Shown here: positions 1 to 22,558 of the stretch, piece by piece
Position numbering within the stretch: the stretch's first letter is position 1
Layout: the number at the start of each line of letters is the position of its first letter
Origin: Nitrosopumilales archaeon
GTDB taxonomy: Archaea > Thermoproteota > Nitrososphaeria > Nitrososphaerales > Nitrososphaeraceae
Direction: 5' to 3'
Length of the DNA stretch: 23,728 nt
Assembly: GCA_044507735.1 (NCBI GenBank)
Contig: JBIQJB010000029.1
Coordinates: 1 to 23,728 of the forward strand
Notes under the pieces: model-generated
Told to the model about the DNA's origin: nothing
Database searches by the model: none
What the model saw: only the letters and a program-made list of their open reading frames with translations
Position numbers and translations under genes: made by a program

Positions 1-55
1 ATGAAAAAAGCTAGGACAGTCCTAGCTTTACGCATTACCCTAAGTTAACAGAGCC
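1..55 (-). mobile_element. Probable terminal inverted repeat/end of an IS6-family-like insertion interrupting the DUF1156 gene
   Basis: Minus strand from 55 reads GGCTCTGTTAACTTAGGG, resembling IS6-family ends (IS6100 GGCTCTGTTGCAAA, IS26 GGCACTGTTGCAAA); it starts where the methylase frame turns into GLC*. No transposase is visible in the window. Confidence 0.5.
7..29. repeat. Perfect 11-bp-arm palindrome AAAGCTAGGAC-A-GTCCTAGCTTT, followed on the minus strand by a T-run (terminator-like)
   Basis: Read directly from 7-17 and 19-29. Confidence 0.75.
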
Positions 56-935
56 CTTCTGGTGTTGGTAATTCATAATACTTCCCGCCCTTGACTTTTG
101 TTACGATTGCAATCAATTCTCTATCTTTGAATTTGGATATTGCCTTGGTAATCTGTTCCCGATCTATACTATTCCTGCATCTGATGCAGATAGCCTTGCC
201 ATTTTTCTGGGTAAAACTATTTCCTTCCTTTAGGCTTAAGTTGTAATCTATATGCACACTGAAGTCATGATTCTTGTTGACCAGAAACTTGACTCCTGTC
301 CTTCTTCCCTTTCCCCTAGCTAACCACATATTGTTTGTTAATGGAAATCGCTGATTACAATAGGGGCATCGCATACACCACATCCAGACATAAGCAAGAG
401 CCTTATTTTCAGCTCTATCAAAATATGGATGCAGTTCTTTCCTACATCTGTCAATTACTTCATATCCAAATTTTTCAACATCTTCTACAAGTCTCTGTCC
501 ATACTTAGTAGGGAAATATAGACTCCCGTTCATTATCAAGTATGCTAGTGGATTGTAGTCCATTGCTACGCAGTTTAAGCCCAATTCTTTAGCTTCAAAA
601 ATAAGATTACCCGCTCCAGCAAAGGGATCAAGTACATTAATTTCCTTAGGATTTTTCTTTATTTGCTTGGCATAGACCTCTAAATTAGGTTTAAAATTGA
701 AAGCAGGTTTGTCTCTAGAGAGACCCAGCAATGAACTGATTACATTGATGTTATCCAAAGTACTGGCCAAAACTACTGCTCGACCTACAATTAGTGGCTT
801 TCTAGTCCACCAGTAGTGGATCTCATTTATCGGCGGCTTTGCATTACCTAGTTTTTCCCTTCTTGCCTCTGTACTGACCGAGGAAAATAGTTTGACTAAA
901 TCTATTGTCTCTTCCTCGATGACTGTATTATTCAT
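45..935 (-). pseudogene. DUF1156-family adenine-specific DNA methylase, N-terminal part, apparently truncated
   Basis: IHYWWTRKPL (DUF1156 signature), SAM-binding VLDPFAGAG, DYNPLAY, zinc-ribbon CPYC/CIRC; about 300 aa whereas family members are usually about three times longer and carry a C-terminal DPPY motif, absent here. ATG 935 preferred over 968 because it overlaps the end of the upstream gene. Confidence 0.8.
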
Positions 936-1278
936 AGAGGGATCTCCACGCCTTTCCAGTTCTCTCATTTGTCATGAATTTGCTGGCCCAAAAATGAACT
1001 TCCATCCCACTCAGAGATTCTACTGTACTGATAAACTGCATTGCTTCATGCATGTTTCTCGCGCATTTCAGAACTTGCAATCCGACAAACATCCTCGCGA
1101 CATTTTCATTCCATTCCTTTGATTCAAAGGTCAGATGCTTTAGTGCAAAGTCCTTTCTCCATCCCTTTACATACGATAGATTGAACGCCTTCTTTCCGAA
1201 CCTATCGTCAACTTCTATCTTCATTACCGCGGATTTACCGCTCTTGCTTTCTGAAAGGAGGTGGTTGAAATTCCTCAT
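928..1278 (-). CDS. Small protein of the DUF499-DUF1156 system (DUF3780-like position)
   Basis: 116 aa; ATGA overlap with the DUF499 stop; C-terminal LSGMEVHFWASK...AWRSLY resembles the xEEaxYW..K/Ralr.l motif of small proteins in this operon slot. Confidence 0.7.
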   Translation of the reverse strand: MRNFNHLLSESKSGKSAVMKIEVDDRFGKKAFNLSYVKGWRKDFALKHLTFESKEWNENVARMFVGLQVLKCARNMHEAMQFISTVESLSGMEVHFWASKFMTNERTGKAWRSLYE

Positions 1279-3980
1279 GTCTTTGAGACCTTGATCTTGT
1301 ACTTTGTGAATTCGTTGGTAAGATCGGTATCTGATGTGACTATGACACTACCATTACCACTGTATCTATTCATGAGAGATTGAATCAGACTCTTGATCTC
1401 TGGTATTCCAGCGGGATTGGTATCAATGCTTATGGTATCGGTTTCTGTCCTCATTGAAACGTGAAGCTGTGACCTGACACTGCTCCCAACTATAATGACA
1501 GGTAATGTTTGAAGTACAGCAAAGAGTTCCTTGAGATCATGGCAGCTTATTGAATAATGATACTCGGGTTTCCCACCAAGTTGCTCTTGCGATCCTCGTT
1601 CATTTTCAGCCACCTGTTGTTCTTTGGAAGATACTTGTTCGGACTTGGAGTATACGCGGTCTTTCTTTATGATCCAGCCACTCCAGTTTACGAATGCAAT
1701 GTTTTCACCTATTCTAGCGACATACTTGCCCTCATTCTGAACCGGCTCATGTTCTTCCGAATATCCGAAAGTACCTTGTTTTACGCCTTCTTGAACTGCT
1801 TCAAGTATTACTTTTCCATTTAGAATCAGACGCTTGCTCTTGTCCTTTTTGAATAGAGCGTATACATCCTCTACCCGCGCCTTATCTTCTATCATATCAG
1901 ATAGCACATCTGGAAGGAGCTTGTCTACTAACTGTCCTTTCTTGCGGAGTAACTCGAGTATCGCTCCTGTCAGGTCTCTGCTTTTAGTATCAAGAGTAGA
2001 GATGGCATCGCTCCTAAGGTCATTAAGATGAGAATATGCTACCTTGGAGTATACATTCATGCACTCAGATTTTAGATTGCCCTGAGCATGGTTTAGCCTG
2101 TCCCTTACTATGGGCATATTATTTTTGTCAAGTTTGATGCGCTCATCTTTTTGGGCCTTTTCTATTGCACAGACAAGCTTGGCGCTCTCGACTAGAGATT
2201 CAACTCCAAACCGATCTGCGTAGATGAAAACCAGTGTGTTCTGATAGTCTCTAATGTCCCCATTTGGCCTGTATTCGATCAAGGGTTTTAGATATTCCTT
2301 GTAATTATCTTCATTGATTTTTTCCTCGTAGTTGACTGCAAATATTTTCAACTTGTCATTGTCTTCGACCATCTCCCTATCCCACAGGATCACATTTACT
2401 CCATCCTGGGGTGGCAAGAGTGAGTCGAGTGTCTCGTAGATCTTGTCCTTAGTCTCCCTAGGAGAAACCTCTTGGGCATAGTCATAGATAATCTTGTTAA
2501 TGCTTGGTTCCTTGTCAAAGTAGAATTCAGTACCTTCTTGCTTCAGATACCAATACTGCTTTGACATATCGTCAAGGGCCTCCTCAATAGTATCAGGGTC
2601 AATCCCTGGATAACACACTCCTAATTGGAGTTCGCTCTTTTTTATCCCAGATTTTCTGCTGCTTCCTATGATCGAGTAAATGTAAATTGTTCTTGCCATT
2701 CGCTCAAAGACCTTGATGTTTCTTTTTTCATCTAATGCCTTTGACTTTTTTATGCAGTCACTTTCAATGACCGGCTTGTAATCCGCCATGTCTATCTTTG
2801 AGGTCAGCTCTTCTTGGATCTCCTTGTCCTCGAGCTGAACATCAGCTGTGCTTACCAATTGGCAATTTTCCTTGTTGGTGTTCAAATTGCGAAGGACCAG
2901 TGCTAGTAGTCGTAGAATACCTCTTGTCCTGTTGAACTTTTCTACAGTAGATACTCGTTCATAGAGGACATCGATTAGGAACGGATGAAAGGGGTATGCC
3001 TTTCGAAGATTCACTTGAAAATCTGGATCTACTGGTATTCCCTTTTCCACATAGTATTTGTAGTATTCTTCAGTTACTTTTGCCGCAACATTCTGATTGA
3101 ATTCCTTGACAAGTCGCGTTCTTATCACATCATAGACCTCTTTTTTCTCGACTGGTGCTTTGAATTGCACTTGGCGTGAGAGAACGTCTCTCAGGTTATC
3201 GACTATAGTATCTACGCGATAGTCCCGGATCGACTTTAACGACTCTCTGAGCTTCTCTGTATATCGTTCGTAAAGCTGCTGCTTTGCAGTGAACGTCATG
3301 ATAAGCACAGAGTTCTTGCTGGCTGAAACTGCACTAATCAGGTTTAGGATAAATCCGATTGTCAAATCTGCTAGTGTTACCTTGCCGACCTGCTCTGCGT
3401 CTGCGGTTAGCAAGAAATGCGGCAATTCATCGATTAGCAAAAGTGTAGGCTTGTCAAAGAGCGCTTTGATCATTCCGATGTCTTTAATCGGCTGCTTGGC
3501 CCTGTCAAGCTCCTGCATCTCTTTGTATCTGCCCAAAGAGTCTGCAATCTCGCCCCAGAGAGTGTTCTTTGTCAACCTCCTGCAATCAATGGCTACAACG
3601 TTGGTCTGTGGGACATCGGCTATGTCATAGTCTTTATGCAGATTGTATTTCTTGATATAATCCCTGCCAAGGTCTTTGTTTTTGAACAGATGGTAAAGAA
3701 GGAGTATCGTGTGGGTTTTTCCACCGCCAAACTCTGTATCAATAATATATGCAGGTTGCCCTTCGCCGCGGGATACCCTCACGAGGGCATCCTTCAGGAT
3801 GAGTTTCGCGTTTGAAGTCAGAAATGTATTCTTCAAAAAGAGCTTTGGATCTTTGTAAATATCGGCTGCTGAGCCGTCCAAAACAGAATGCAGTTCAACT
3901 GCAAATTTGCTATAATCGAGCTGGTTATTGATTATTTCGTCGCTGAATTTGCATGTCTTCCAGACACTATGAGCATCCAT
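1275..3980 (-). CDS. DUF499-family AAA+ ATPase (restriction-like/BREX-related defence ATPase)
   Basis: 901 aa; Walker A TEFGGGKTH, TLWGEIA, Walker B LLLIDE, YPFHP, FNRTRGILRLLA, all typical of DUF499; adjacent to DUF1156. Confidence 0.9.
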   Translation of the reverse strand: MDAHSVWKTCKFSDEIINNQLDYSKFAVELHSVLDGSAADIYKDPKLFLKNTFLTSNAKLILKDALVRVSRGEGQPAYIIDTEFGGGKTHTILLLYHLFKNKDLGRDYIKKYNLHKDYDIADVPQTNVVAIDCRRLTKNTLWGEIADSLGRYKEMQELDRAKQPIKDIGMIKALFDKPTLLLIDELPHFLLTADAEQVGKVTLADLTIGFILNLISAVSASKNSVLIMTFTAKQQLYERYTEKLRESLKSIRDYRVDTIVDNLRDVLSRQVQFKAPVEKKEVYDVIRTRLVKEFNQNVAAKVTEEYYKYYVEKGIPVDPDFQVNLRKAYPFHPFLIDVLYERVSTVEKFNRTRGILRLLALVLRNLNTNKENCQLVSTADVQLEDKEIQEELTSKIDMADYKPVIESDCIKKSKALDEKRNIKVFERMARTIYIYSIIGSSRKSGIKKSELQLGVCYPGIDPDTIEEALDDMSKQYWYLKQEGTEFYFDKEPSINKIIYDYAQEVSPRETKDKIYETLDSLLPPQDGVNVILWDREMVEDNDKLKIFAVNYEEKINEDNYKEYLKPLIEYRPNGDIRDYQNTLVFIYADRFGVESLVESAKLVCAIEKAQKDERIKLDKNNMPIVRDRLNHAQGNLKSECMNVYSKVAYSHLNDLRSDAISTLDTKSRDLTGAILELLRKKGQLVDKLLPDVLSDMIEDKARVEDVYALFKKDKSKRLILNGKVILEAVQEGVKQGTFGYSEEHEPVQNEGKYVARIGENIAFVNWSGWIIKKDRVYSKSEQVSSKEQQVAENERGSQEQLGGKPEYHYSISCHDLKELFAVLQTLPVIIVGSSVRSQLHVSMRTETDTISIDTNPAGIPEIKSLIQSLMNRYSGNGSVIVTSDTDLTNEFTKYKIKVSKT

Positions 3981-4066
3981 CTCGTTACTAAGCTTAATTC
4001 AAAGAATGTTTGCTTAAGAACTTTTAGCTAGTATTTACTTCTGTTAATATACTAGAGTTTATCGTG

Positions 4067-4801
4067 CTATCCGGCTTCGCCCTTCGCTGTTACGGCTGTC
4101 AGGGTAATATCGACCAACTGCTTTGCCAGCTCCAACGTTGATGCTTGAATCTGTCCGGTCAATGTCCCATCATTTAATATTGTCACATTCATTACGGCAT
4201 TCGAGAGAAACACTCTTAGACCAATTAGATGTAATTTATCGCCTTCAACTGGATATTTGTCAAGAACTCTGGTGTCTGTTACGTTCAATTGTCTTTCTTG
4301 AAGCTGTGAATGAATCTTGGATTTGAGACTGTCAGGAGTTTGACCAGATATTGAAAAGCTACCCCTGGCACGAAAATCATATGATTCGGGCCCAGCACTA
4401 AATATTCTGTATTTTACACCTGATTGATGTACCTCTGGCTTTTCTTGAGCAATCTCAGTTTCAAGCACTTCTTCGATGTACTTTTTGAATCGATCCGTAG
4501 TTCGATCAAGTTCAACTGCAAATAGATAATCGGTATTGATCTGGTTTTCTCTTATTTTCTCTCCAACTTTCAATTTAGGATTTAGTTCAGAGTGTTCTTT
4601 TTTTACCGTTTTTCTGTAATCATCCAGCTCTCTCTTTAGCGAGTATCCTTCTGCTACAATTTCTCCAAGAGCGGCAGCAGATTCGTTGATCGACTCTTTG
4701 GCATCATCATAATCAGTTACCCAGAGACTTAGCTTGGCATCATACAAATGAGTCATGGCTCTTTCTATTGCTGATTTTATTTCCTCAGGAGTGCTTCTCA
4801 T
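4067..4801 (-). CDS. Hypothetical protein (helical/coiled-coil N-terminus, alpha/beta C-terminus)
   Basis: 244 aa ORF, ATGA-coupled to the upstream nuclease-like gene; no recognised motif. Confidence 0.7.
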   Translation of the reverse strand: MRSTPEEIKSAIERAMTHLYDAKLSLWVTDYDDAKESINESAAALGEIVAEGYSLKRELDDYRKTVKKEHSELNPKLKVGEKIRENQINTDYLFAVELDRTTDRFKKYIEEVLETEIAQEKPEVHQSGVKYRIFSAGPESYDFRARGSFSISGQTPDSLKSKIHSQLQERQLNVTDTRVLDKYPVEGDKLHLIGLRVFLSNAVMNVTILNDGTLTGQIQASTLELAKQLVDITLTAVTAKGEAG

Positions 4802-5526
4802 GGCCGCACCACAATGATCAGAGCATCATATTGCATATTACGAGCATCACGTATGAAAATGGCTACAAGTCCATAGTTCGTTCTTATTTGTTCAATCTGT
4901 TCGAAGGCCGAGCGCATTTTAGCTGCTATTTCTGGAGGATAGAATTTTGAAGCCCCCTTTGCTTCGGCAACCAATGGTGGTGCAATAGGTGTTGTACGAC
5001 CCGGTTCCAAGACTTCTGCAAGCTCTGGTGTAATAGAGCGGATGTAAAAGTCAGGTGACCTTCCAGTATGTTTGGTTGCCTTTAAATGGACTATGGCGCT
5101 AGGGAGCAATCCGTACCTTACTAGGAACATTGAGGCTAGTAGGGATTCCCCTATTGTTCCCGACATGTCTCCCGAGATCACCTTCCTCTGTAGTTTCTCT
5201 ACCGGCACTCTTCTGCCGGTGCGTTTGACGATGCTTGAAGGGATAGCAGGAGTAGGTACTGTAAGGGGAGGAAGAAGCCGCGAAGCGTAGAGTTGGAAGT
5301 GAAAACCAACTTTTTCAACCCATTTTTCTACATGTTTCTGCGCATCAATATCGACAAAGTCAGTATGCCACAAAATTGGAAAATCCTCTTCTCCTCTAGA
5401 CATACGACCATGGAAAGTAGTCGCTAGATTTTTGCTAGTGTCAATTATTTGTTGATCTGAGGCCAGGCTAGAAGAATCTATGCGTTCAATGTAAACATAA
5501 CCAGGTATTATCATCTCACTTCGCAA
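4798..5526 (-). CDS. Putative PD-(D/E)xK nuclease
   Basis: GTIGES (helix Glu), RSPDFYI, VAEAKG motifs in the expected order; start uncertain (TTG 5526 or ATG 5514). Confidence 0.7.
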   Translation of the reverse strand: MRSEMIIPGYVYIERIDSSSLASDQQIIDTSKNLATTFHGRMSRGEEDFPILWHTDFVDIDAQKHVEKWVEKVGFHFQLYASRLLPPLTVPTPAIPSSIVKRTGRRVPVEKLQRKVISGDMSGTIGESLLASMFLVRYGLLPSAIVHLKATKHTGRSPDFYIRSITPELAEVLEPGRTTPIAPPLVAEAKGASKFYPPEIAAKMRSAFEQIEQIRTNYGLVAIFIRDARNMQYDALIIVVRP

Positions 5527-5690
5527 TCTCTTGAAAGCTATGACGATGAGTCATGCTCCAATAGCCTTATCCGAAAGTGTTAGTAAATAATATTTTTGGT
5601 CTAGGACAGAGTCACCATATGACACCACCATCGATCAAAAACTGATTCAGGCTCTACAAATTGATAACCACTATTTCCTGTTTGGTCATT

Positions 5691-6797
5691 CTATTGCTGA
5701 TTCGGATCCTTGCGCCCTATATCGATCAATTCGCTAACCATATCATAGAGCAGAATGGGATTGCGATTCAACGTTTCCTTAACAACATCTGCCAACGCAG
5801 TTATGCTATTTTCTATATTCGTGATTAGTTTTGGCAAATAACCTTCATTACAAATCACTATGGGGATGCCGTAACCTAGATCTAGATTTTCGATTTTTCC
5901 AGTTGGATGTGGAGGCCTGAAGTAGTATATGCCATATCCAATATCCTCAAACCCTGCGATCTGATCATTCTGCATTTGAACACGTATCAATCCGTTGTTT
6001 CTACCTATCACCATCAAAGGAATGGTCAGCGATATCTCATACCACCCTAACCCTTCTAGAAACTCATTCATGAAACTAGTCAGAGCTTTGTCCATAGTTT
6101 TTTTATCAAGCTCATCACCAACGCGATAACGGGGAAACCTCTTTCTAGCATCACTGTGTCTAGTTACGAAATTATTCGCATCATCATTCTCTAGATAGAA
6201 ACTGCCCAATCCATAGAGAGCATTGCCAACATAATGTGTTACTGCATCAAGAATTTGCAGGCAAGCACCAAAAACCGTTCTATCAGATTCATGATACTGT
6301 TTGCCCTCCACGTCCACCTCTGCAATTTTTTCGATGATGGATGGGAAACTAAAGAAATCTGAAAGCCATTTTCGTTCTGAGCCGGACTCGAATATCTTCT
6401 TTCCGTCTAGGGTAATCGGGAAGGATCCATACAAAGACCGCTGGCTGCTATCAAATACAAAAAAATCATTTGTTGATGAATACTTGCACTCGCCGATGAT
6501 GCGCAATCTAAAGTCGATTTTACAATTGTGTAGTACAAACCCCTTAACCTCTTTCTCGAGATTTATGTCGATCTCGCGCAAAATAGATGTACCAGATTTT
6601 TCATCTTCATTGTAGTAATAGCGTCCAAATTCCTCCCGATAGCCCATTGCCTCCAGCTGCCTGATGACCGCGATTTCGAGGGGGAATCCTACCTTCTCAA
6701 TGTCTCTCTTCAATTCCTTTACAGCTTTTTCGCTATTCATCCATTCCTTGTATGACTTTTTGGCATTCGAGGATTTAGTCAAATGACTTAAGGGCAC
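5691..6797 (-). CDS. Putative PD-(D/E)xK restriction endonuclease-like protein
   Basis: GFPLE...REIDI...IIGECKYS motifs; 368 aa; start may be the later ATG (MNSEKAV). Confidence 0.75.
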   Translation of the reverse strand: MPLSHLTKSSNAKKSYKEWMNSEKAVKELKRDIEKVGFPLEIAVIRQLEAMGYREEFGRYYYNEDEKSGTSILREIDINLEKEVKGFVLHNCKIDFRLRIIGECKYSSTNDFFVFDSSQRSLYGSFPITLDGKKIFESGSERKWLSDFFSFPSIIEKIAEVDVEGKQYHESDRTVFGACLQILDAVTHYVGNALYGLGSFYLENDDANNFVTRHSDARKRFPRYRVGDELDKKTMDKALTSFMNEFLEGLGWYEISLTIPLMVIGRNNGLIRVQMQNDQIAGFEDIGYGIYYFRPPHPTGKIENLDLGYGIPIVICNEGYLPKLITNIENSITALADVVKETLNRNPILLYDMVSELIDIGRKDPNQQ

Positions 6798-7119
6798 AAT
6801 CGTAATATCCTCTATAATTATCTTCTAAGTTAAGACGATTGTTTCAGCATTCTTTGATATTATGCCGCCTATACAAAACCCTTGAATCTACTAGATTAGC
6901 TCAAACAATAGTTAATTACAGACAGTTTTGACGCTTCGTACACCAAACGTTGTGGACACCAGCTACATTCAAGACACACAAGTATATCGCATGTCATTGG
7001 AATTTTATAAAAAGCGTCCGGTGTGTCAAAAGTGTCAGTGCAGGATCGTATCAATTGCAACTCTAACCCATTTGTGAAACTCATTTAAGCCCAATTTGGG
7101 AGGGTTGTAGGGCAACGCG

Positions 7120-7470
7120 ATGAAGAAAGCGCCAAGGGGGCAAAGAAAAGCCAGAAAGAAACAAGTCACTGTTGATGATTCAGCCGTTGGAAAAGAGAAT
7201 CCTTCTGATAACGCAAAGTCCAAAGTCTTCTCTGATCAGTGGTTTCGAGAAGTTAGCGCCATCATAAAAGACATGGAGGAGTCAGAGTTGGACAAGCCAT
7301 ACCACACCCACAGCAAGGCCATGAAGATGCTGATGGGATATTTTTCACTCAGTTCCATAGCTATGCAGAATCTAGCACCGGACCAGAGGGAACGCGTAAG
7401 GAGAGAGTCAGAGAACGTGTGTAACCGGCTTGGATTCTCGCTTTTCTCCGATAAGGAAAGCAGAGTGTAA
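7120..7470 (+). CDS. Hypothetical protein with basic N-terminus
   Basis: 116 aa ORF with ATG, protein-like composition, convergent with 7479-7760. Confidence 0.6.
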   Translation: MKKAPRGQRKARKKQVTVDDSAVGKENPSDNAKSKVFSDQWFREVSAIIKDMEESELDKPYHTHSKAMKMLMGYFSLSSIAMQNLAPDQRERVRRESENVCNRLGFSLFSDKESRV

Positions 7471-7478
7471 TAGTAGCC

Positions 7479-7760
7479 TCATTTGTCCTTGTCTTTTTTG
7501 TTTATTCTTCCCAGAACGTACAGGACTCCTACCTGTGTAAGGGAGCAAACATCTCCGCTTTTTCCATGCGAGCTCACATACCCCTTGTTTTCAAGCCTCC
7601 TCATAATAGAATGAAACCCTTTCTTCAAGCCATACCTCTGTGACAACTCAAGCCAGTTTATTTTGGCTCTGACAATTTGGATAGGTCTATAGTCCATGCC
7701 AATTATTCCTTCATCATACATCCTCATCAGTATCTCTTCTTCGTAATCAGCCAATGTCAT
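7479..7760 (-). CDS. Small winged-helix-like protein
   Basis: 93 aa; helix MRRLENKGYV followed by a wing (SHGKSGDVCSLTQVG), a wHTH-like pattern. Confidence 0.65.
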   Translation of the reverse strand: MTLADYEEEILMRMYDEGIIGMDYRPIQIVRAKINWLELSQRYGLKKGFHSIMRRLENKGYVSSHGKSGDVCSLTQVGVLYVLGRINKKDKDK

Positions 7761-7957
7761 CGCATGAAGTCTTAATTTACCAATTGTACGGTATGTATAT
7801 AAACATTAGCATAGTTATATATATGGTCGCGCATAGTTATGTACATAATGACGACGCAAAGAACCCCACCCGCACTGTACAAGGAGTATTTAAAGAGCAG
7901 TGGCACAATTGTGACCAATTTGATAAATAATTGTTCTACAGAAGGTGTGTAGCTCCC

Positions 7958-8545
7958 ATGAAACAAAGACTAGCCGACCCGCAAGGAAGAAAAGAGAGCG
8001 ACAATTCTGCCGAAAGTTCCCGCACATCATTTGCAGAGGCATGCGAAACGGTGATGAAAGTTTTGGTGGAACAGCAGAAGCCATTCTCTATAAGTGGCAT
8101 AGCAAAGGAATCCAAACTGCACAGAAGAACAGTCGAGAAATGCATCGAATTATTGGCGAATCTGGAATCAAAAGGGCTAGAAGACTACAAGCTAGCATTG
8201 CATACCGTAGATAACAAGAAAATCATTACTCTGGAAAAAAGAACAGGCCTGCTATCCTATCCCCTGGACATCCAGAAGATAATATTGCGAGCGCAACACT
8301 TTCCAATGCCCTCCAGCGAAACCTATCAGATTGTAAACCTGTATCTGCGGGATGCCAAGTCCGAGAAAACCGCAATGGTTGTGGAAGAAAACGAAGTCTT
8401 GAAGAAGCTTGTAAAACAAGGACAGGTCATAGCATCAAAGAATGGCTTTTACTTATCCGAAGAAGGGATTGTAGTGGCGGAAGGAGCGTTAGAACTCTAT
8501 CCGTTTCTAAAGCAGCACAAGCCCGAGAAAGAAAAGAAACAATAA
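7958..8545 (+). CDS. Winged-helix transcriptional regulator (two probable wHTH modules)
   Basis: FSISGIAKESKLHRRTVEKCIELL HTH; C-terminal LKKLVKQGQV...FYLSEEG; ATG 7958 preferred over TTG 7931. Confidence 0.7.
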   Translation: MKQRLADPQGRKESDNSAESSRTSFAEACETVMKVLVEQQKPFSISGIAKESKLHRRTVEKCIELLANLESKGLEDYKLALHTVDNKKIITLEKRTGLLSYPLDIQKIILRAQHFPMPSSETYQIVNLYLRDAKSEKTAMVVEENEVLKKLVKQGQVIASKNGFYLSEEGIVVAEGALELYPFLKQHKPEKEKKQ

Positions 8546-8557
8546 TCCTCTCTCCTA

Positions 8558-8563
8558 TTTTTT
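8558..8563 (+). terminator. Oligo-T archaeal terminator candidate
   Basis: T6 run shortly after the 8545 stop, between convergent genes. Confidence 0.35.
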
Positions 8564-8575
8564 GGATCTACTGCA

Positions 8576-9679
8576 TTACAACTTTTCTGCTGAACGCAAG
8601 TTAGAATCAACCAATATGTTCTGCTGGAGTGATTTGAGAATCTCTGTTATCCTTTTACAATTCTGTTCAAAATCCGGCCTAAAATAATGTCTTGCAAACA
8701 CAGTTCTTGGAAGCCGTCCTTGGAGTAAATCAATAACCTCTTGTTCTATGCCATTAATCCTAAGGTATGTGCCAAATATCTTTCTGCAATATCCCATCTG
8801 CATATCGAGGCCGCGACGCTTGAGGTAGTTCCTGAGCGCATTGTATCCACAGTTATTGGCATCTTTGGCAAGCTGAATAATCTGATTGCTTGCGATAGAG
8901 ATGAAGGCCTTTTTGCTGTTCCTGATGAATATGGCAGGATACTTGTAATGTTCCAGTACCATGGTATCTCTCCTGAGATAGTTGTCAAAGTCGGTTTGGA
9001 TTAGGGAAATACTCTGACATACCTCATTTGGACGCAATCCTACCAAAGTCGCATAAAGTAGAATGTTGGCGTAATCGTCAGGTATCTTACTGCAGACGCT
9101 CCTTAGCCATACCATCATAGAAGAAAAGTCCTTTTCCGAGTTGATTAGAGAGTTGAAAATCTCCAAGCTATCCTGGGTAGTCCATTTGAGCTGGTAACGT
9201 TCCTTTATCTCTCGCCACTGGTCATAGCAACCAAGATACTTTGAAAGCGCTACAAGGGCTTCCATGGCATGATGTCTCTTAAAGCCAGAGATTGTAAGAA
9301 GCTCGCTGGCATTCCCTGTTTGGAGAATGTGGCCGTAGCGCTTGGCGCATAGCAATACTTGCTTGGAATTCCTGCGGCCCTGTGCGGAGAGGTAATGCTT
9401 GAAACCCTCAATCTTGTTCTCCACTAATAGCGAACTGTTCTCCACTAATGGAGAAGTGGGAGCTGGCTGAGCAGTACCCTGCAGTCCGGTCCAGTATGGG
9501 GGAATGGCACGACTTTCACGATTTTGTTGTAATTCTCTGGCAGCGTAAGCTCTATTGTTGGGAAAAGTAAGAGCGCCCGGGCCGGGACTATCGGTCGGTG
9601 TCGAACCGACTTTCGAACCCGGGTCGGAGGAGTGACAGTCCCCCATACTGGACCGGACTGTACGATTCTGGCTGTTCAC
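8576..9679 (-). CDS. SSV1-type tyrosine integrase, C-terminal fragment (intC) whose frame runs through tRNA-Asp
   Basis: Catalytic motifs GLRPNE, IRNSKKAF, GYCRKIF, DLLQGR, VFARHY; the 5' part of the ORF overlaps the tRNA gene, the hallmark of integrase gene partition by SSV-type integration. The GTG at 9679 lies in the tRNA intron and is probably not the real start. Confidence 0.88.
   Translation of the reverse strand: MNSQNRTVRSSMGDCHSSDPGSKVGSTPTDSPGPGALTFPNNRAYAARELQQNRESRAIPPYWTGLQGTAQPAPTSPLVENSSLLVENKIEGFKHYLSAQGRRNSKQVLLCAKRYGHILQTGNASELLTISGFKRHHAMEALVALSKYLGCYDQWREIKERYQLKWTTQDSLEIFNSLINSEKDFSSMMVWLRSVCSKIPDDYANILLYATLVGLRPNEVCQSISLIQTDFDNYLRRDTMVLEHYKYPAIFIRNSKKAFISIASNQIIQLAKDANNCGYNALRNYLKRRGLDMQMGYCRKIFGTYLRINGIEQEVIDLLQGRLPRTVFARHYFRPDFEQNCKRITEILKSLQQNILVDSNLRSAEKL
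9415..9455. repeat. 14-bp direct repeat TGTTCTCCACTAAT (9415-9428, 9436-9449; 21-bp period), second copy within hairpin TTCTCCA-CTAA-TGGAGAA
   Basis: Read directly; encodes LVEN twice in the integrase frame. Confidence 0.8.
9482..9510 (+). repeat. Inverted copy of tRNA-Asp segment 9632-9660 (22 bp perfect, 27/29 overall)
   Basis: Plus 9482-9503 CAGTCCGGTCCAGTATGGGGGA equals minus-strand 9660-9639; continues ATGGCAC vs CTGTCAC. Confidence 0.92.
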
Positions 9680-9714
9680 TCACAAGCAACCAGGTATCTC
9701 TATACTACCCGGGC
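9574..9714 (-). tRNA. tRNA-Asp: tRNA-Asp(GTC) with two non-canonical introns (D-loop 15/16: 9658-9699; T-loop 59/60: 9588-9611)
   Basis: Spliced sequence GCCCGGGTAGTATAG|TCCGGTCCAGTATGGGGGACTGTCACTCCTCCGACCCGGGTTCGAA|TCCCGGCCCGGGCG folds into a full cloverleaf (acceptor GCCCGGG/CCCGGGC, anticodon GTC at 9636-9634, T-loop TTCGAAT); both junctions fit relaxed bulge-helix-bulge motifs; no encoded CCA. Confidence 0.92.
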
Positions 9715-9728
9715 GCACGTGATCCGAC

Positions 9729-9748
9729 TTTTATAAAACTAATTAAAA
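9729..9748 (-). promoter_or_regulatory. AT-rich TATA-like elements upstream of tRNA-Asp
   Basis: TTTTAATT about 27-34 nt upstream of tRNA +1, and TTTTATAAAA closer in. Confidence 0.45.
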
Positions 9749-10010
9749 CGTTTTGGTTCAAAAGCGGAGATTCCAGACAAGCATGGTGGGACGAACAGCA
9801 GGACAAACAACAACAGCAACAACACCGCGCATGCCGTCAATAAGCTCTGCCTACCTGCCGCCACATCATCTTCATTTCTTTTTTCTGCACGCAAATAACA
9901 GAGCTATATGTGCTCTTCTGGCTGGAATTGCAAAGTTATACCCATAGTTCAGATTTTCAATAAAAATAATTGGTAAGGTAATAGCAACAGTTGCAAATCA
10001 TCCAAATGCG

Positions 10011-10016
10011 TATATA
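10011..10016 (+). promoter_or_regulatory. TATA box of the MinD-like gene
   Basis: TATATA 28-33 nt upstream of ATG 10044 (short-leader/leaderless geometry). Confidence 0.55.
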
Positions 10017-10043
10017 CATACACGGCGGCTTAGCAGTGCGGGA

Positions 10044-10925
10044 ATGCCACAATGCATCGCCTTTCACTCTTACAAGGGAGGAACCGGCAAGACAACTATC
10101 GCAAGCAACCTTGCCGTCCTTCTTGCCGCAAAAGGCTCCAGTGTGGCACTAATCGACGTAGATGTTTATGCCCCAAGCCTTCAGGCCTATTTTGAACATA
10201 CACCCAGCAAATGGCTCAACGACTTCTTGTCCGATAACGCCACTCTTCAGGAGGTAATGATTGAAATGACTTCTGTTGTTAGCAACAGCTTAGAAATATC
10301 CAGCCTACTGGACAGCATCAAGGGAAAGCTATGGGTAGCATATTCAAATCCTCAGAAGGAAGCCATATACAGTCTTGAGGCCGGCAAGACCACCAACACT
10401 CCTCCAATACAGCTTTTGCGACGTTTTATCAAGCTCCGGGAAGATCTGATTACAGAATACGACTGCGACTATATCATCATGGATACGAGCCCGGGCATAA
10501 GGTACTGGTCGATCAACTCGCTTGCAATTGCAGACATATTGCTACTCACTCTAAAATTTGGCGACCTTGACATTGAGGGAACCCAGAAAATGGCAAATGA
10601 AATATACAAATCGTTTACCCAGTTTGGCGCCAAGTCCTACCTGCTATTGAACAAAGTGGCGGGCTACTGCATCCCCATCTCCGCCGCCACTGGTACCGCG
10701 TCCCCAGAGTCCGGAGAAAATCATCTGGAAAACACACTTGTTCAGGATGTATCTGACTACGACAGCCTGTCCAGACAGGTCAACATGGACCTGATTTCGG
10801 CCATTCCATGTTACTGCGACATACAGTTCAAGAGAAAAGAATTCCTCACAGTTCTGAAATATCCTACGCATCCATTTACGACTCAATTGAACCATCTTGC
10901 ATCATCCAAGATGATCAGGGGTTGA
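10044..10925 (+). CDS. MinD/ParA-family ATPase
   Basis: Deviant Walker A SYKGGTGKTT, LIDVD, IIMDTSPG, LLNKV; no obvious C-terminal amphipathic membrane-targeting helix. Confidence 0.9.
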   Translation: MPQCIAFHSYKGGTGKTTIASNLAVLLAAKGSSVALIDVDVYAPSLQAYFEHTPSKWLNDFLSDNATLQEVMIEMTSVVSNSLEISSLLDSIKGKLWVAYSNPQKEAIYSLEAGKTTNTPPIQLLRRFIKLREDLITEYDCDYIIMDTSPGIRYWSINSLAIADILLLTLKFGDLDIEGTQKMANEIYKSFTQFGAKSYLLLNKVAGYCIPISAATGTASPESGENHLENTLVQDVSDYDSLSRQVNMDLISAIPCYCDIQFKRKEFLTVLKYPTHPFTTQLNHLASSKMIRG

Positions 10926-15250: not shown

Positions 15251-15259
15251 GTTGACATA

Positions 15260-15311
15260 GTATAGGAAGTCAGGGTGTAAATTGACCGGCAATGCCGGAA
15301 AACGGTCACAG
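15260..15311 (-). promoter_or_regulatory. Conserved promoter/operator copy 1 (TGACCG-N14-CGGTCA plus ATTTACA) upstream of psmB
   Basis: 26 bp identical to 17549-17574 (GGAAGTCAGGGTGTAAATTGACCGGC) plus shared CGGTCACAG. Confidence 0.85.
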
Positions 15312-16598: not shown

Positions 16599-17537
16599 TC
16601 ATGGGCGCTTGTCCACCTGCACAGGGACCTGGAGCTGGCGCCCGTAGCGATTGACAGTCAGAGTCAGCCGATCGTCCACGCGTTTCTTGCGCACGTGCGA
16701 TGCTATCTGCGATGGATCCTCCACCCTGCTGCCATCAATCCCCTCGATGATGTCACCCTTTCTCAATCCAGCATCGTCGGCGGGGCTGTATGGCTCTACC
16801 CGGGCAACCAGCGCCCCTTCGGTAACTGGAAGCCCATAGTAGCGGGCAAGCTGTGGAGTGACCTTAATTGATGCGACGCCTATCCACGGCCTGGCAACTT
16901 TGCCCCTTTCGATCAGTTCCTTGAGTATTGACTTGGCAGTATTCACCGGAACCGCAAAGCCAATGCCCTGCGCATAGGGCATGTTGGCGGTGTTGATTGC
17001 AACCACCTGACCCTTTGTGTTGACAAGCGGCCCTCCGGAGTTGCCTGGGTTGATCGCGGCATCTGTCTGAATTAGGTCAAGCACGCCGCCACTCCTTACC
17101 TGTATTGTACGGTTCAATGAACTTACAATTCCTGCTGTGACAGCTGGCCCTCCAGTGAGCCCAAATGGGTTTCCGATTGCCATGACAATCTGGCCGACCT
17201 TCAGGTCGTCTGAATTGCCAAGCTCTGCTGCCGGCAGTGGCTCTTCTGCCTCTACCTTTATCACGGCAAGATCTGTGGCTTCGTCGCTTCCGACGACTTT
17301 GCCCCTCAGCACCTTGCCGTCTGCGAGGGTAACCTTGAGCCTCTCCGCGTCATCGATAACATGGTTGTTCGTAAGTATGTAGCCCTTCTCGTCGATCACC
17401 ACTCCGGACCCGACGCCCTCTACAGGGAACACCCTGAAGAGGTGGTCTTGCAGTATCCGAACGCTGGCGATGTTGACTACGCTCTTGCTGATCTTGTCCA
17501 CAGCGCTTACAAGCACTTCTTCGGGAACGGGTATCAT
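16599..17537 (-). CDS. htrA: HtrA/DegP-family serine protease with one PDZ domain, no signal peptide
   Basis: GSGVVI, TNNHV, DLAVIK, AIGNPFG, IQTDAAINPGNSGGPL, C-terminal PDZ (SPADDAGLRKGDII). Confidence 0.93.
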   Translation of the reverse strand: MIPVPEEVLVSAVDKISKSVVNIASVRILQDHLFRVFPVEGVGSGVVIDEKGYILTNNHVIDDAERLKVTLADGKVLRGKVVGSDEATDLAVIKVEAEEPLPAAELGNSDDLKVGQIVMAIGNPFGLTGGPAVTAGIVSSLNRTIQVRSGGVLDLIQTDAAINPGNSGGPLVNTKGQVVAINTANMPYAQGIGFAVPVNTAKSILKELIERGKVARPWIGVASIKVTPQLARYYGLPVTEGALVARVEPYSPADDAGLRKGDIIEGIDGSRVEDPSQIASHVRKKRVDDRLTLTVNRYGRQLQVPVQVDKRP

Positions 17538-17543
17538 GTCATT

Positions 17544-17595
17544 GTATTGGAAGTCAGGGTGTAAATTGACCGGCTATTGGAAAACCCGGTCACAG
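17544..17595 (-). promoter_or_regulatory. Conserved promoter/operator copy 2 upstream of htrA
   Basis: Near copy of 15260-15311 with identical TGACCG-N14-CGGTCA spacing. Confidence 0.85.
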
Positions 17596-18098: not shown

Positions 18099-19607
18099 TC
18101 AGCTCACGTTGACTGTTCCGACCATGTTCGGGTGGACCGCGCAGTAGTACGGGTATTCGCCTGCTTCTTCAAACGTGTGCTCGAATGTCTGCTGCGGAGC
18201 CAGCAACGGGTTGAGGTTTGGCGAAGAGTCAAATTTGCCGTCCGGCTGGGCGTTGGTACCCGAGGTCACCGTGTGTGGCGTGGTATCGTGATTGGTCCAC
18301 TTCACCGTGTCTCCGACGCTGATCTCAACAGGGTTGGGGTCGAACGCATCGGTGGTCTTGCTCGTGGAGCCAGATGTTATTGATACTTCGACTGTGTTTC
18401 CTCCGCCTCCACCGCTTGGGCCAGCTGCCGGAGCAGGGGTGGTGGTAGTTGTGGTTGTTGTCTCGTTTCCTGCTGATGCTGCTCCTGCTGTCTCGTTTCC
18501 TGTCGCGTTACCTGCTGGTGTTGCCGGAGGCGCTGTCTGGTTGCCGGTCACGTTGCCGGTAGGTGCAGCGGCCATGCCGCCCGTAGCATTGGGGGCTGCT
18601 GGCGCGGTTGGAGCCATCGGCTGTGGTTCGGCCGGTGTCTCGGCACCGGGCTCAGGCGGCAGTACAGACTGCCTCTCACCATTCACTTCCCCTATTAGCG
18701 CAGTAACAAACCCGTAGATTGGCATGCCCTTGAAGTGGTTGTCGGTCGAATCATTGTCCACGTTGATGGTTACGACCCTGCCTGTGCTTTCTATCGTGAT
18801 TGGAACGTTCTCCCACTGCAGGTTGTTGTCGAGGTACACGTTGGCCGAGCCATAAATCTCAAAGGTACCATCTTCAGCAAGCGTAGCCTGGGCAAAAGCA
18901 GTCTCGGTTCCGGATTCCGCTGGCGCAGTTGCGTTTGGTGTCACTGCCGGAGGCGCTGTCTGGTTGCCGGTCACGTTGCCTATAGTAGTGGTAGTAGTCG
19001 CATTGCCAGTCTCGTTACCGCCTGTGATGATCTGCATGAAACTCTCCACATTGGTCGCATTGCCTGCATCTGTCGCAGCGGTGGTGTTTCCGCCAGCAGC
19101 AGTCATGTTGCTGCCGCCTGCAGTAGCATTGGACGTGGCAGTTTCGCCCGTCCCTGCGGTAAAGTTGTCTACAAGCACTGTATGGAAATCGCTGCCATCA
19201 GGCTTTGACATCATCATGTTGATCTCAACCTTCCGCGCTTCGCCGTCAATTACATCGATGCTCAACCTCCCGCCTACTACTTCTGCAGAAGCATTATCCC
19301 CGCTAGCAGGGTCTGATATGATGCTGGAGATTAGCCCTCTGACATAAAACGTATTGATTTCACCTGCTGCCGTGGCATTAGTTCCACCAGCGCCGGTAGT
19401 AGCAGTCTGGTTGTCCATGGAAGTGACATTGCCAGCGCTCGCGGTAGTAGTAGCATTACTGGTCGATGCCGTGACATTGTCTGTCGGGGCCGTGCCAGTG
19501 ATATTCTGTCCAGCTACAAGAGAATAGCCGGCTATGCTGAATGCAAAAGTGCCAAGCAGGGCAACTATTGCAAACGCTCTAAATAGAGTCTGGTACTGCG
19601 TTCTAAT
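18099..19607 (-). CDS. Large secreted/surface Thr-Ala-Asn-rich protein with C-terminal plastocyanin-like cupredoxin domain
   Basis: C-terminal HTVTSG...YYCAVHPNM type-1 Cu site; many NxT sequons; frame stays open 63 codons upstream of ATG 19418 and encodes a signal-peptide-like stretch starting at ATT 19607 (start uncertain). Confidence 0.82.
   Translation of the reverse strand: MRTQYQTLFRAFAIVALLGTFAFSIAGYSLVAGQNITGTAPTDNVTASTSNATTTASAGNVTSMDNQTATTGAGGTNATAAGEINTFYVRGLISSIISDPASGDNASAEVVGGRLSIDVIDGEARKVEINMMMSKPDGSDFHTVLVDNFTAGTGETATSNATAGGSNMTAAGGNTTAATDAGNATNVESFMQIITGGNETGNATTTTTIGNVTGNQTAPPAVTPNATAPAESGTETAFAQATLAEDGTFEIYGSANVYLDNNLQWENVPITIESTGRVVTINVDNDSTDNHFKGMPIYGFVTALIGEVNGERQSVLPPEPGAETPAEPQPMAPTAPAAPNATGGMAAAPTGNVTGNQTAPPATPAGNATGNETAGAASAGNETTTTTTTTPAPAAGPSGGGGGNTVEVSITSGSTSKTTDAFDPNPVEISVGDTVKWTNHDTTPHTVTSGTNAQPDGKFDSSPNLNPLLAPQQTFEHTFEEAGEYPYYCAVHPNMVGTVNVS
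18522..18980. repeat. 36-bp exact direct repeat (18522-18557, 18945-18980) encoding GNVTGNQTAPPA
   Basis: TGCCGGAGGCGCTGTCTGGTTGCCGGTCACGTTGCC occurs twice. Confidence 0.85.
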
Positions 19608-22141: not shown

Positions 22142-22558
22142 ATGGTCAACAAGACTGCCATAGTGATCGCATCGATTGCAACAATCATTGGTGCGGTCGT
22201 GGCTACTTACTTTCTGTCCGGCAGCACGAATAGTGAGGCGGAGGGATCTCGAAATTCAGTACAACAGCCCATCGTTACATCCATCCCTGAGAATTCAACA
22301 GTAGTAAAAATAGTCGCCAACTCTGGAAGCAATTCGTTCAGCCCGAACCCTGTTGAGATCAAAGTCGGCGAGACTGTGACGTGGCTAAACGATGATTCTG
22401 GCAGGCATACTGTAACTGCAAAGGATGGCGTTTTCGAATCCGAATTGATGGGAAAGGGACAATCATTCATCTACACTTTTGACAGAGAAGGAGAGTATTC
22501 GTACTTTTGCGAACCCCATCCAAACATGGTGGGCACAGTGGTGGTGACAAAAAGCTAA
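22142..22558 (+). CDS. Membrane-anchored plastocyanin-like blue copper protein
   Basis: N-terminal hydrophobic helix; FSPNPVEIKVGETVTW, HTVT, YFCEPHPNM. Confidence 0.92.
   Translation: MVNKTAIVIASIATIIGAVVATYFLSGSTNSEAEGSRNSVQQPIVTSIPENSTVVKIVANSGSNSFSPNPVEIKVGETVTWLNDDSGRHTVTAKDGVFESELMGKGQSFIYTFDREGEYSYFCEPHPNMVGTVVVTKS

Follow-up and report, generated by a model that had tools for sequence, protein, structure and literature searches.

The locus analyzed here raises the question of why the integrase gene of an integrated archaeal element should carry, inverted and in frame, a copy of part of the very tRNA gene that the element occupies. The window, that is, the whole 23.7-kb contig (23,728 nt) of a 55-contig genome of a Nitrosopumilales archaeon, contains an inverted repeat, one arm of which (R, 9632-9670) lies in a tRNA-Asp gene and the other (R', 9472-9510) in the adjoining integrase frame. 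According to a repeat finder, the arms are 39 nt long, match at 33 of 39 positions (85%) and are 121 nt apart; the perfect stretch amounts to 22 nt (9482-9503 against 9639-9660). The repeat is longer than the 29 nt given in the initial annotation, the core observation of which, namely that the plus strand at 9482-9510 is the reverse complement of 9632-9660 at 27 of 29 positions, 22 of them in a perfect run, is confirmed on the sequence. Perfect inverted repeats of at least 14 nt with a gap of 40-260 nt occur eight times in the whole assembly (2,323,197 bases), and at a threshold of at least 18 nt the R/R' pair is the sole case, which rules out a chance origin. Misassembly is ruled out by a 10,056-nt contig from an independent run of another study (X2), which spans 9000-10081, covers the tRNA gene, both arms and the integrase, and shows eight differences and no joints. 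Elsewhere in the window, the host DNA contains a 53-nt inverted repeat (81% identity; 18297-18349 and 22332-22384, ~4 kb apart) and a 59-nt direct repeat (81%; 15253-15311 and 17537-17595, 2.3 kb apart).

The frame that encompasses R' (8576-9679, minus strand, 367 aa) represents int(C), one part of a split tyrosine integrase of the SSV type, with the conserved domain at approximately 8579-9409. The predicted protein matches PF16795 (Phage_integr_3) with an E-value of 9e-08 and a score of 32.6 bits against a cut-off of 27 (residues 209-333), and the R, H, K and Y columns are invariant in an alignment of 19 integrase sequences. From 9679, the frame is open through the 3' part of the tRNA gene, the spacer and R', and the path from core through spacer to R' is open in all seven loci tested; alignments of homologues begin near residue 25 after R'. 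The copy lies in a linker of the integrase (AIPPYWTGLQ), and it was correctly annotated as in frame, with 9482-9510 reading AIPPYWTGL and R' starting 64 nt past the tRNA's 3' terminus. The intervening spacer (9511-9573, minus strand) is itself inside the open frame and contains a T-run at 9563-9566. The assignment of the integrase to the SSV type is borne out by the PF16795 match together with two relatives, G243 (~11 kb) and G246 (~14 kb), in which both junctions are found on one contig: the far end has an int(N) ORF of 55-60 aa, which continues in frame into a direct repeat of 52-59 bp with the anticodon loop at its start. The int(N)-core junction is also present in G475. The 55 contigs of the window's assembly yielded no int(N) and no second copy of the core, and int(N) matches no Pfam family.

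The GC content is ~0.42 up to ~9500, as against ~0.50 beyond 10000, in the host DNA (composition profile); the integrated element therefore corresponds to 1-9573 and is cut by the contig end. The remaining element DNA (1-8575) has the same GC content of ~0.42, and its cargo includes, on the minus strand at 45-3980, a DUF1156 protein with weak matches to DNA methylases and a 901-aa DUF499 protein, which together may represent a restriction- or defence-like pair. The predicted att core is a 30-bp direct repeat that extends from the anticodon stem to the T-loop (9612-9641): the same 30-bp sequence forms the attL/attR repeat of the tRNA-Asp elements G481 and G475, and contigs from two independent runs break exactly at 9612-9641. 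The core lies just 3' of R and therefore R, which overlaps it, is host DNA and R' is element DNA; the attR junction positions in relatives likewise place R on the host side.

The tRNA-Asp(GTC) gene (9574-9714, minus strand; anticodon loop 9632-9638, anticodon 9634-9636) is accordingly a hybrid of a host 5' part and an element 3' part. Neither ARAGORN nor Rfam reports a tRNA in the window, because the gene is interrupted by two insertions; once both are cut out in silico, tRNA-Asp(gtc) is called in 7024 of the 19712 splice variants tried. The locus was read directly and placed in an alignment together with other tRNA-Asp loci, 13 empty and 15 occupied. The insertion in the D-loop (9658-9699, minus strand, with approximate boundaries drawn by eye), a putative intron, is host-borne, being present in empty and occupied sites. 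Arm R comprises the 3' end of this intron, the D-loop, the 3' strand of the D-stem, the 5' strand of the anticodon stem and the anticodon loop; the original description of its extent stands with respect to the intron end, the D-arm 3' strand and the anticodon-stem 5' strand with the loop, whereas the 3' strand of the anticodon stem, implied when the whole anticodon arm was named, falls outside R. The insertion in the T-loop (24 nt, 9588-9611, minus strand), a putative intron with a hairpin, comes from the element and not from the host, which amends the initial annotation: aligned among the tRNA-Asp loci parsed, it is present in 16 of 16 occupied and in none of 13 empty ones. The element therefore installs an intron-like hairpin insertion in its tRNA, at the edge of the att core. 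By eye, the hairpin arms of this insertion vary between elements in a paired manner. A DNA search with the tRNA-Asp locus detected no second copy in the assembly, so that this is apparently the sole tRNA-Asp gene.

If the inverted copy is a property of the element rather than an accident of this locus, homologous integrases inserted in other tRNA genes should carry copies of their own targets, as the initial annotation proposed to examine. Integrase homologues were identified in 44 of 401 sampled genomes of the class, and the comparison covered homologues with at least 48% identity and elements that follow a tRNA of like orientation on its downstream side. As the genomes are related to one another, the counts given here are not independent events; no conclusion depends on genomes flagged as unpublished. 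The outcome is positive for Asp, Glu(TTC), Glu(CTC) and Thr(GGT). Inverted copies of the respective tRNA are present in 14 of 16 occupied tRNA-Asp loci and in none of the 13 empty sites; for Glu(TTC), the arms match at 29 of 33 positions in G243 and 36 of 39 in G320, for Glu(CTC) at 32 of 38 in G246, and for Thr(GGT) at 38 of 43 in G350 and 41 of 46 in G549. Five of 80 metagenome loci, about a third of which have less than 300 nt of upstream sequence, add further Thr(GGT) copies (33/33, 44/46, 37/39, 34/37 and 23/27). The copies in relatives are 23-46 nt long and separated from the tRNA segment that they copy by gaps of 83-145 nt. Each starts with the reverse complement of the anticodon loop and proceeds for 23-46 nt toward the 5' end of the tRNA, whether this stretch consists of intron (Asp, Glu-TTC), exon, or, in several Thr loci, 7-13 nt of the 5' leader. 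Eight of the 14 Asp copies, as well as that of G243, keep the loop itself intact (7/7). The match extends to single bases: at the variable position of CA[G/A/T]TCCGG, R' agrees with the neighbouring tRNA in 11 of 11 Asp loci, the empty tRNA-Asp sites having G in seven, T in three and A in three, and the Thr hosts G350 and G549, which differ at one base of the D-loop, each have an R' that matches its own host.

The copy is absent from several functional-looking relatives, namely L053 (Arg-TCG), L030 and L038 (Glu-CTC), L068 and L070 (Thr), and L097 and L098 (Asp), and hence is not required by the integrase family. Locus L053 (G000:C49:23347-24210) is a paralogue in the same genome, with 49% identity, beside a co-oriented tRNA-Arg(TCG); it has palindromic motifs and no inverted tRNA copy. 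The arrangement of tRNA 3' half, spacer and inverted 5' half recurs in L022 and L025 with the integrase on the opposite strand, and also downstream of an intact tRNA-Glu in G320 (G320:C117). In L022 and L025, the 5'-half copy is located inside unsplit int genes, which indicates that R' is element-borne. The unsplit genes seen in the 80 metagenome loci all contain an antisense tRNA 3' half, and none has the orientation of the window. Two scans of viral contigs, one with a single protein and one by alignment, revealed no free-form relatives, viral or plasmid, and a peptide-pattern scan of genome contigs with a single protein revealed no relatives. In G324, the 93%-complete genome of L025, the sole match to tRNA-Glu(TTC) is the 3' half inside the unsplit integrase gene, which could reflect an assembly gap or a disrupted tRNA.

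The sequence of R' appears to be subject to two opposing pressures. Across nine Asp elements, mean pairwise identity is 0.82 in R', 0.67 in the spacer and 0.47 in the next 40 nt downstream. Elements with an integrase hit have TCCCAG or a similar sequence where the tRNA-like sequence would be TACTAG, which contains an in-frame stop, whereas elements with no or a partial integrase hit keep TACTAG; this split implies that R' is drawn toward the tRNA sequence and checked by the need for an open frame. Two dead elements, L074 and L081, retain near-perfect copies including the in-frame TAG. Copies without an adjoining tRNA 5' half are more diverged (36/50 and 48/63, compared with 36/39). The similarity that reaches into the leader suggests local copying, and we infer that the near-identity of R' to the adjoining tRNA is upheld largely by gene conversion with the tRNA 5' half. 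In three DNA runs from three studies of close strains, two variants, 9478 C>T and 9483 A>C, both fall in R', are nonsynonymous and weaken the pairing without compensation. Two further possible origins of the copy were discarded: a retro-copy of the mature tRNA is ruled out by the intron bases that R' holds in the Asp and Glu(TTC) elements, and a tRNA primer-binding site is ruled out by reasoning, given that R' pairs with the 5' half and no 3' end is offered. Thus, R' is borne by the element, matched to the target in four tRNA classes, more conserved than its flanks and shaped by the avoidance of stop codons.

The surroundings of R' and of the core share palindromic motifs. The window has two tandem motifs of the TTCTCCA-N4-TGGAGAA type at 9417-9455, contained in a direct repeat at 9415-9456, and they are kept in related arms. 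The motif differs by clade: the Asp elements have TTCTCCA-N4-TGGAGAA, the Glu and Thr elements CTTAC-N8-GTAAG. One copy is always situated on the int(N) side, at a distance of 8 nt from the anticodon loop, as exemplified by the TTCTCCA-N4-TGGAGAA copy at the attR-like junction of the Asp clade, and the others lie beside R' or shortly after it (the motifs were seen in L012, L013, L017, L030, L058, L068, L070, L041, L052 and L183 as well as in the window). These motifs are probably arm sites for protein binding. More broadly, the loci L014-L070 and L101-L180 display all arrangements of a tRNA half relative to int(C): an antisense 3' half (e.g., L014 and L026), a sense 3' half, a sense 5' half and dual inverted halves. 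A sense 5' half is fused at the anticodon loop in L023, L063, L065 and L066, unsplit integrase genes are found in L016, L061, L114, L120 and L135, and many of the antisense-type loci have a short inverted copy of the T-arm and part of the acceptor. In L060 (G414), downstream of a tRNA-Thr 3' half, the spacer and two palindromes are ~90% identical by eye to those of L017 (G350), and the homology ends, again by eye, exactly within the anticodon-loop part of the expected start of R'; this junction may reflect recombination at R'.

What, then, does the copy do, if anything? The initial annotation preferred an answer at the RNA level, which can be spelt out as follows: where transcription continues past the tRNA into element DNA, R' would pair with the tRNA 5' half, and the helix would block the cloverleaf and its processing or silence int(C), thus sensing the integrated state. 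Its structural premise is supported, in that the 251-nt minus-strand RNA is predicted to fold into the long hairpin, with the R:R' helix present in both the minimum free energy and the centroid structures, and none of 200 shuffled sequences is as stable (-105.2 kcal/mol, z -5.64), whereas the tRNA alone folds unremarkably (z -1.25). Furthermore, the covariation described above is compatible with pairing, and since R belongs to the host, the helix can arise only once the element has integrated. Nevertheless, we consider this explanation improbable. In all aligned element arms, the tRNA is directly followed, ahead of R', by a run of four to seven T residues, the usual archaeal terminator; in L022 and L025, the module is on the strand opposite to int and so is no general device of int mRNA; the arm mismatches checked by eye, at the window's own locus and in the TCCCAG variants, are C:U, U:C and A:C rather than G:U; the strain variants weaken the helix without compensation; and the copy is missing from several functional-looking relatives. 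The one RNA run covers only 9697-9732 (36 nt, in the 5' part of the tRNA), with loose ends. On these grounds, neither protection of int mRNA by the hairpin nor its use as a switch between tRNA maturation and integrase expression is supported, and the alternatives named alongside them, a secondary att site at the DNA level or a scar of rearrangement, fit the evidence better. A different kind of switch, in which the integrase would flip the segment between R and R' and thereby toggle the coding state of its own gene or the orientation of the att core, is scarcely credible. The arms do hold inverted copies of the anticodon loop, identical at seven of seven positions in the 8 of 14 Asp copies and G243 mentioned above, and SSV-family integrases catalyse inversion in vitro, according to the available part of the published account (PMC7253208). 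Against it, the flipped segment has in-frame stops in six of seven loci, none of the 29 tRNA-Asp loci parsed is in the flipped arrangement, the contigs from three DNA runs show no joints, and the flip would destroy what is apparently the sole tRNA-Asp gene; the broken frame and the lack of a flipped locus among those parsed make an invertible coding switch unlikely.

The choice therefore lies largely between a site that acts in DNA and a relic. To the reading that R' is a built-in, DNA-level part of the attachment region of the element, we assign a probability of roughly 0.4, judging from comparative sequence data. R' includes the anticodon loop together with host-side bases and could therefore be a second, inverted, core-like site that mimics the left arm of attB. 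Palindromes adjoin not only the core, at 8 nt from the loop, but also R', which supports a DNA-level context, as does the occurrence of the module with either strand of int (L022, L025 and G320:C117), and the L060 arm that ends in the anticodon-loop part of R' points to possible activity there; the partial text available for the in vitro work on SSV-family integrases describes recombination of att sites in inverted orientation (PMC7253208). Several observations count against such a site: relatives that look functional lack R', a recombinase half-site is far shorter than the arms (23-46 nt), the agreement with the tRNA at bases ~24 nt away from the loop and, in several Thr loci, over 7-13 nt of the leader argues for homology-driven copying rather than recognition by a protein, lone copies are more diverged, strain variants weaken R', and no unsplit gene of the same orientation was found. 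Much of this is what a functionless scar would leave, the serious rival, which we hold to be quite possible, if somewhat less so. It would have arisen by past recombination by the integrase at the dyad-symmetric anticodon arm, in a 'wrong' alignment, as an inversion or as a hybrid between elements, and been trapped in a tolerant linker, with its likeness to the tRNA kept only by gene conversion between close inverted copies, within the limits of the open frame. The occurrence in the family of all arrangements of tRNA halves relative to int(C), the relatives without R', the continuation of the similarity into the non-tRNA leader in Thr loci, the greater divergence of partnerless copies, the near-perfect copies with an in-frame TAG in the dead elements L074 and L081, and the nonsynonymous, pair-breaking character of the strain variants are all in line with a scar. 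However, the same geometry is seen with four tRNA specificities, which would require independent captures of 5' halves unless selection or a systematic mechanism were at work; R' is more conserved than its flanks across species; the anticodon-loop part is intact in more than half of the Asp copies; and gene conversion alone leaves the origin of R' unexplained. Moreover, by eye, the spacer has no homology to the end of int(N), although a hybrid origin predicts some.

Under the preferred DNA-level reading, the circular form of the element would have the order int(N), palindromic motif, 8 nt, att core (from the anticodon loop through the 3' part of the tRNA), T-run and spacer, R', and integrase domain. 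R' would copy, in inverted orientation, the 30-45 bp of the target directly on the host side of the crossover, anticodon loop included, and would be accommodated in a tolerant linker of the protein beside the palindromic arm motifs. Integration would then turn attL into a long inverted repeat that brackets the core, and R' would be an accessory or alternative site for assembly of the integrase or for recombination, rather than a means of RNA control. A more speculative proposal, which we advance only tentatively, is that the target is written twice, once as the crossover core and once as the inverted copy of the host-side 5' part, and that the second copy functions through nucleic-acid matching and not through recognition by a protein. 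It is possible to envisage two forms of such matching. One is an internal imitation of attB by which the recombinase complex would be assembled in advance or locked; the other is a sensor of integration, in which R' would encounter its complement, the host tRNA 5' half, only upon insertion and a 23-46-bp hairpin of RNA or single-stranded DNA would form around the core.

SSV-type integrases are the model for site-specific integration in archaea and are thought to need only a short core within their own gene. The element resembles those with 'suicidal' integrases of the SSV1/SSV2 type, in viruses of Sulfolobus and in plasmids of Thermococcales and Methanococcales such as pTN3 and pT26-2, as seen in its relatives G243 and G246: attP of a tyrosine recombinase lies in the integrase ORF, the gene is split to int(N) and int(C), and the repeat starts from the anticodon loop. 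For SSV1/SSV2, pTN3 and pT26-2, the available parts of the published descriptions give a single att segment of 40-60 bp; here, by contrast, the linker has an additional inverted copy of the host-side tRNA sequence, and palindromes are present on both sides of the core. A possible parallel with heterobivalent integrases of the lambda Int type consists in short repeated motifs that lie to either side of the core, no more than a few hundred bp away, and in a small separate N-terminal part of the protein; unlike the lambda arm sites, the motifs here are palindromic, one of them is only 8 nt from the crossover loop, and R' is core-like, that is, derived from the target, the binding role of these sequences being putative. 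Inverted repeats ~100 nt apart around the site of a tyrosine recombinase are also a feature of integron attC and of attP of CTX phage. In attC and CTX-phage attP, the element carries both arms, and recombination acts on the stem in single-stranded form. Here, by contrast, one arm belongs to the host, so that the complete repeat is confined to attL and arises upon integration; before that, the element holds an inverted copy of no more than the 11 bases shared by R and the core (9 of these 11 match in the window).

The article texts that were searched contain no description of such an inverted tRNA copy. NitEve-E3 of Nitrososphaera evergladensis is described as the one thaumarchaeal element with an SSV1-like integrase that is split on integration (Krupovic et al., 2019; PMC6563490), and the available portion of that article does not mention an inverted tRNA copy for it. 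At a tRNA-Thr(GGU) locus, a recombinase-bearing element is reported to leave behind introns and a fragment from the 5' part of the tRNA (Sugahara et al., 2012; PMC3293823); as far as the accessible part of that report goes, the fragment is 1.8 kb upstream and an inverted copy is not mentioned, whereas the copies described here are inverted, 83-145 nt away and in frame in the integrase.

If R' is functional, it would be an unrecognised component of the attachment site, with a bearing on the way in which SSV-type integrases locate their target or lock onto it; a scar, on the other hand, would record how these elements rearrange tRNA halves and gain new targets. The feature is also relevant to the acquisition of introns and inverted fragments by archaeal tRNA genes, since the same element brings an insertion into the T-loop. 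Should matching between nucleic acids prove to be the mode of action, in either of its two forms, it would amount to a novel level at which tyrosine recombinases specify their target or lock the prophage.
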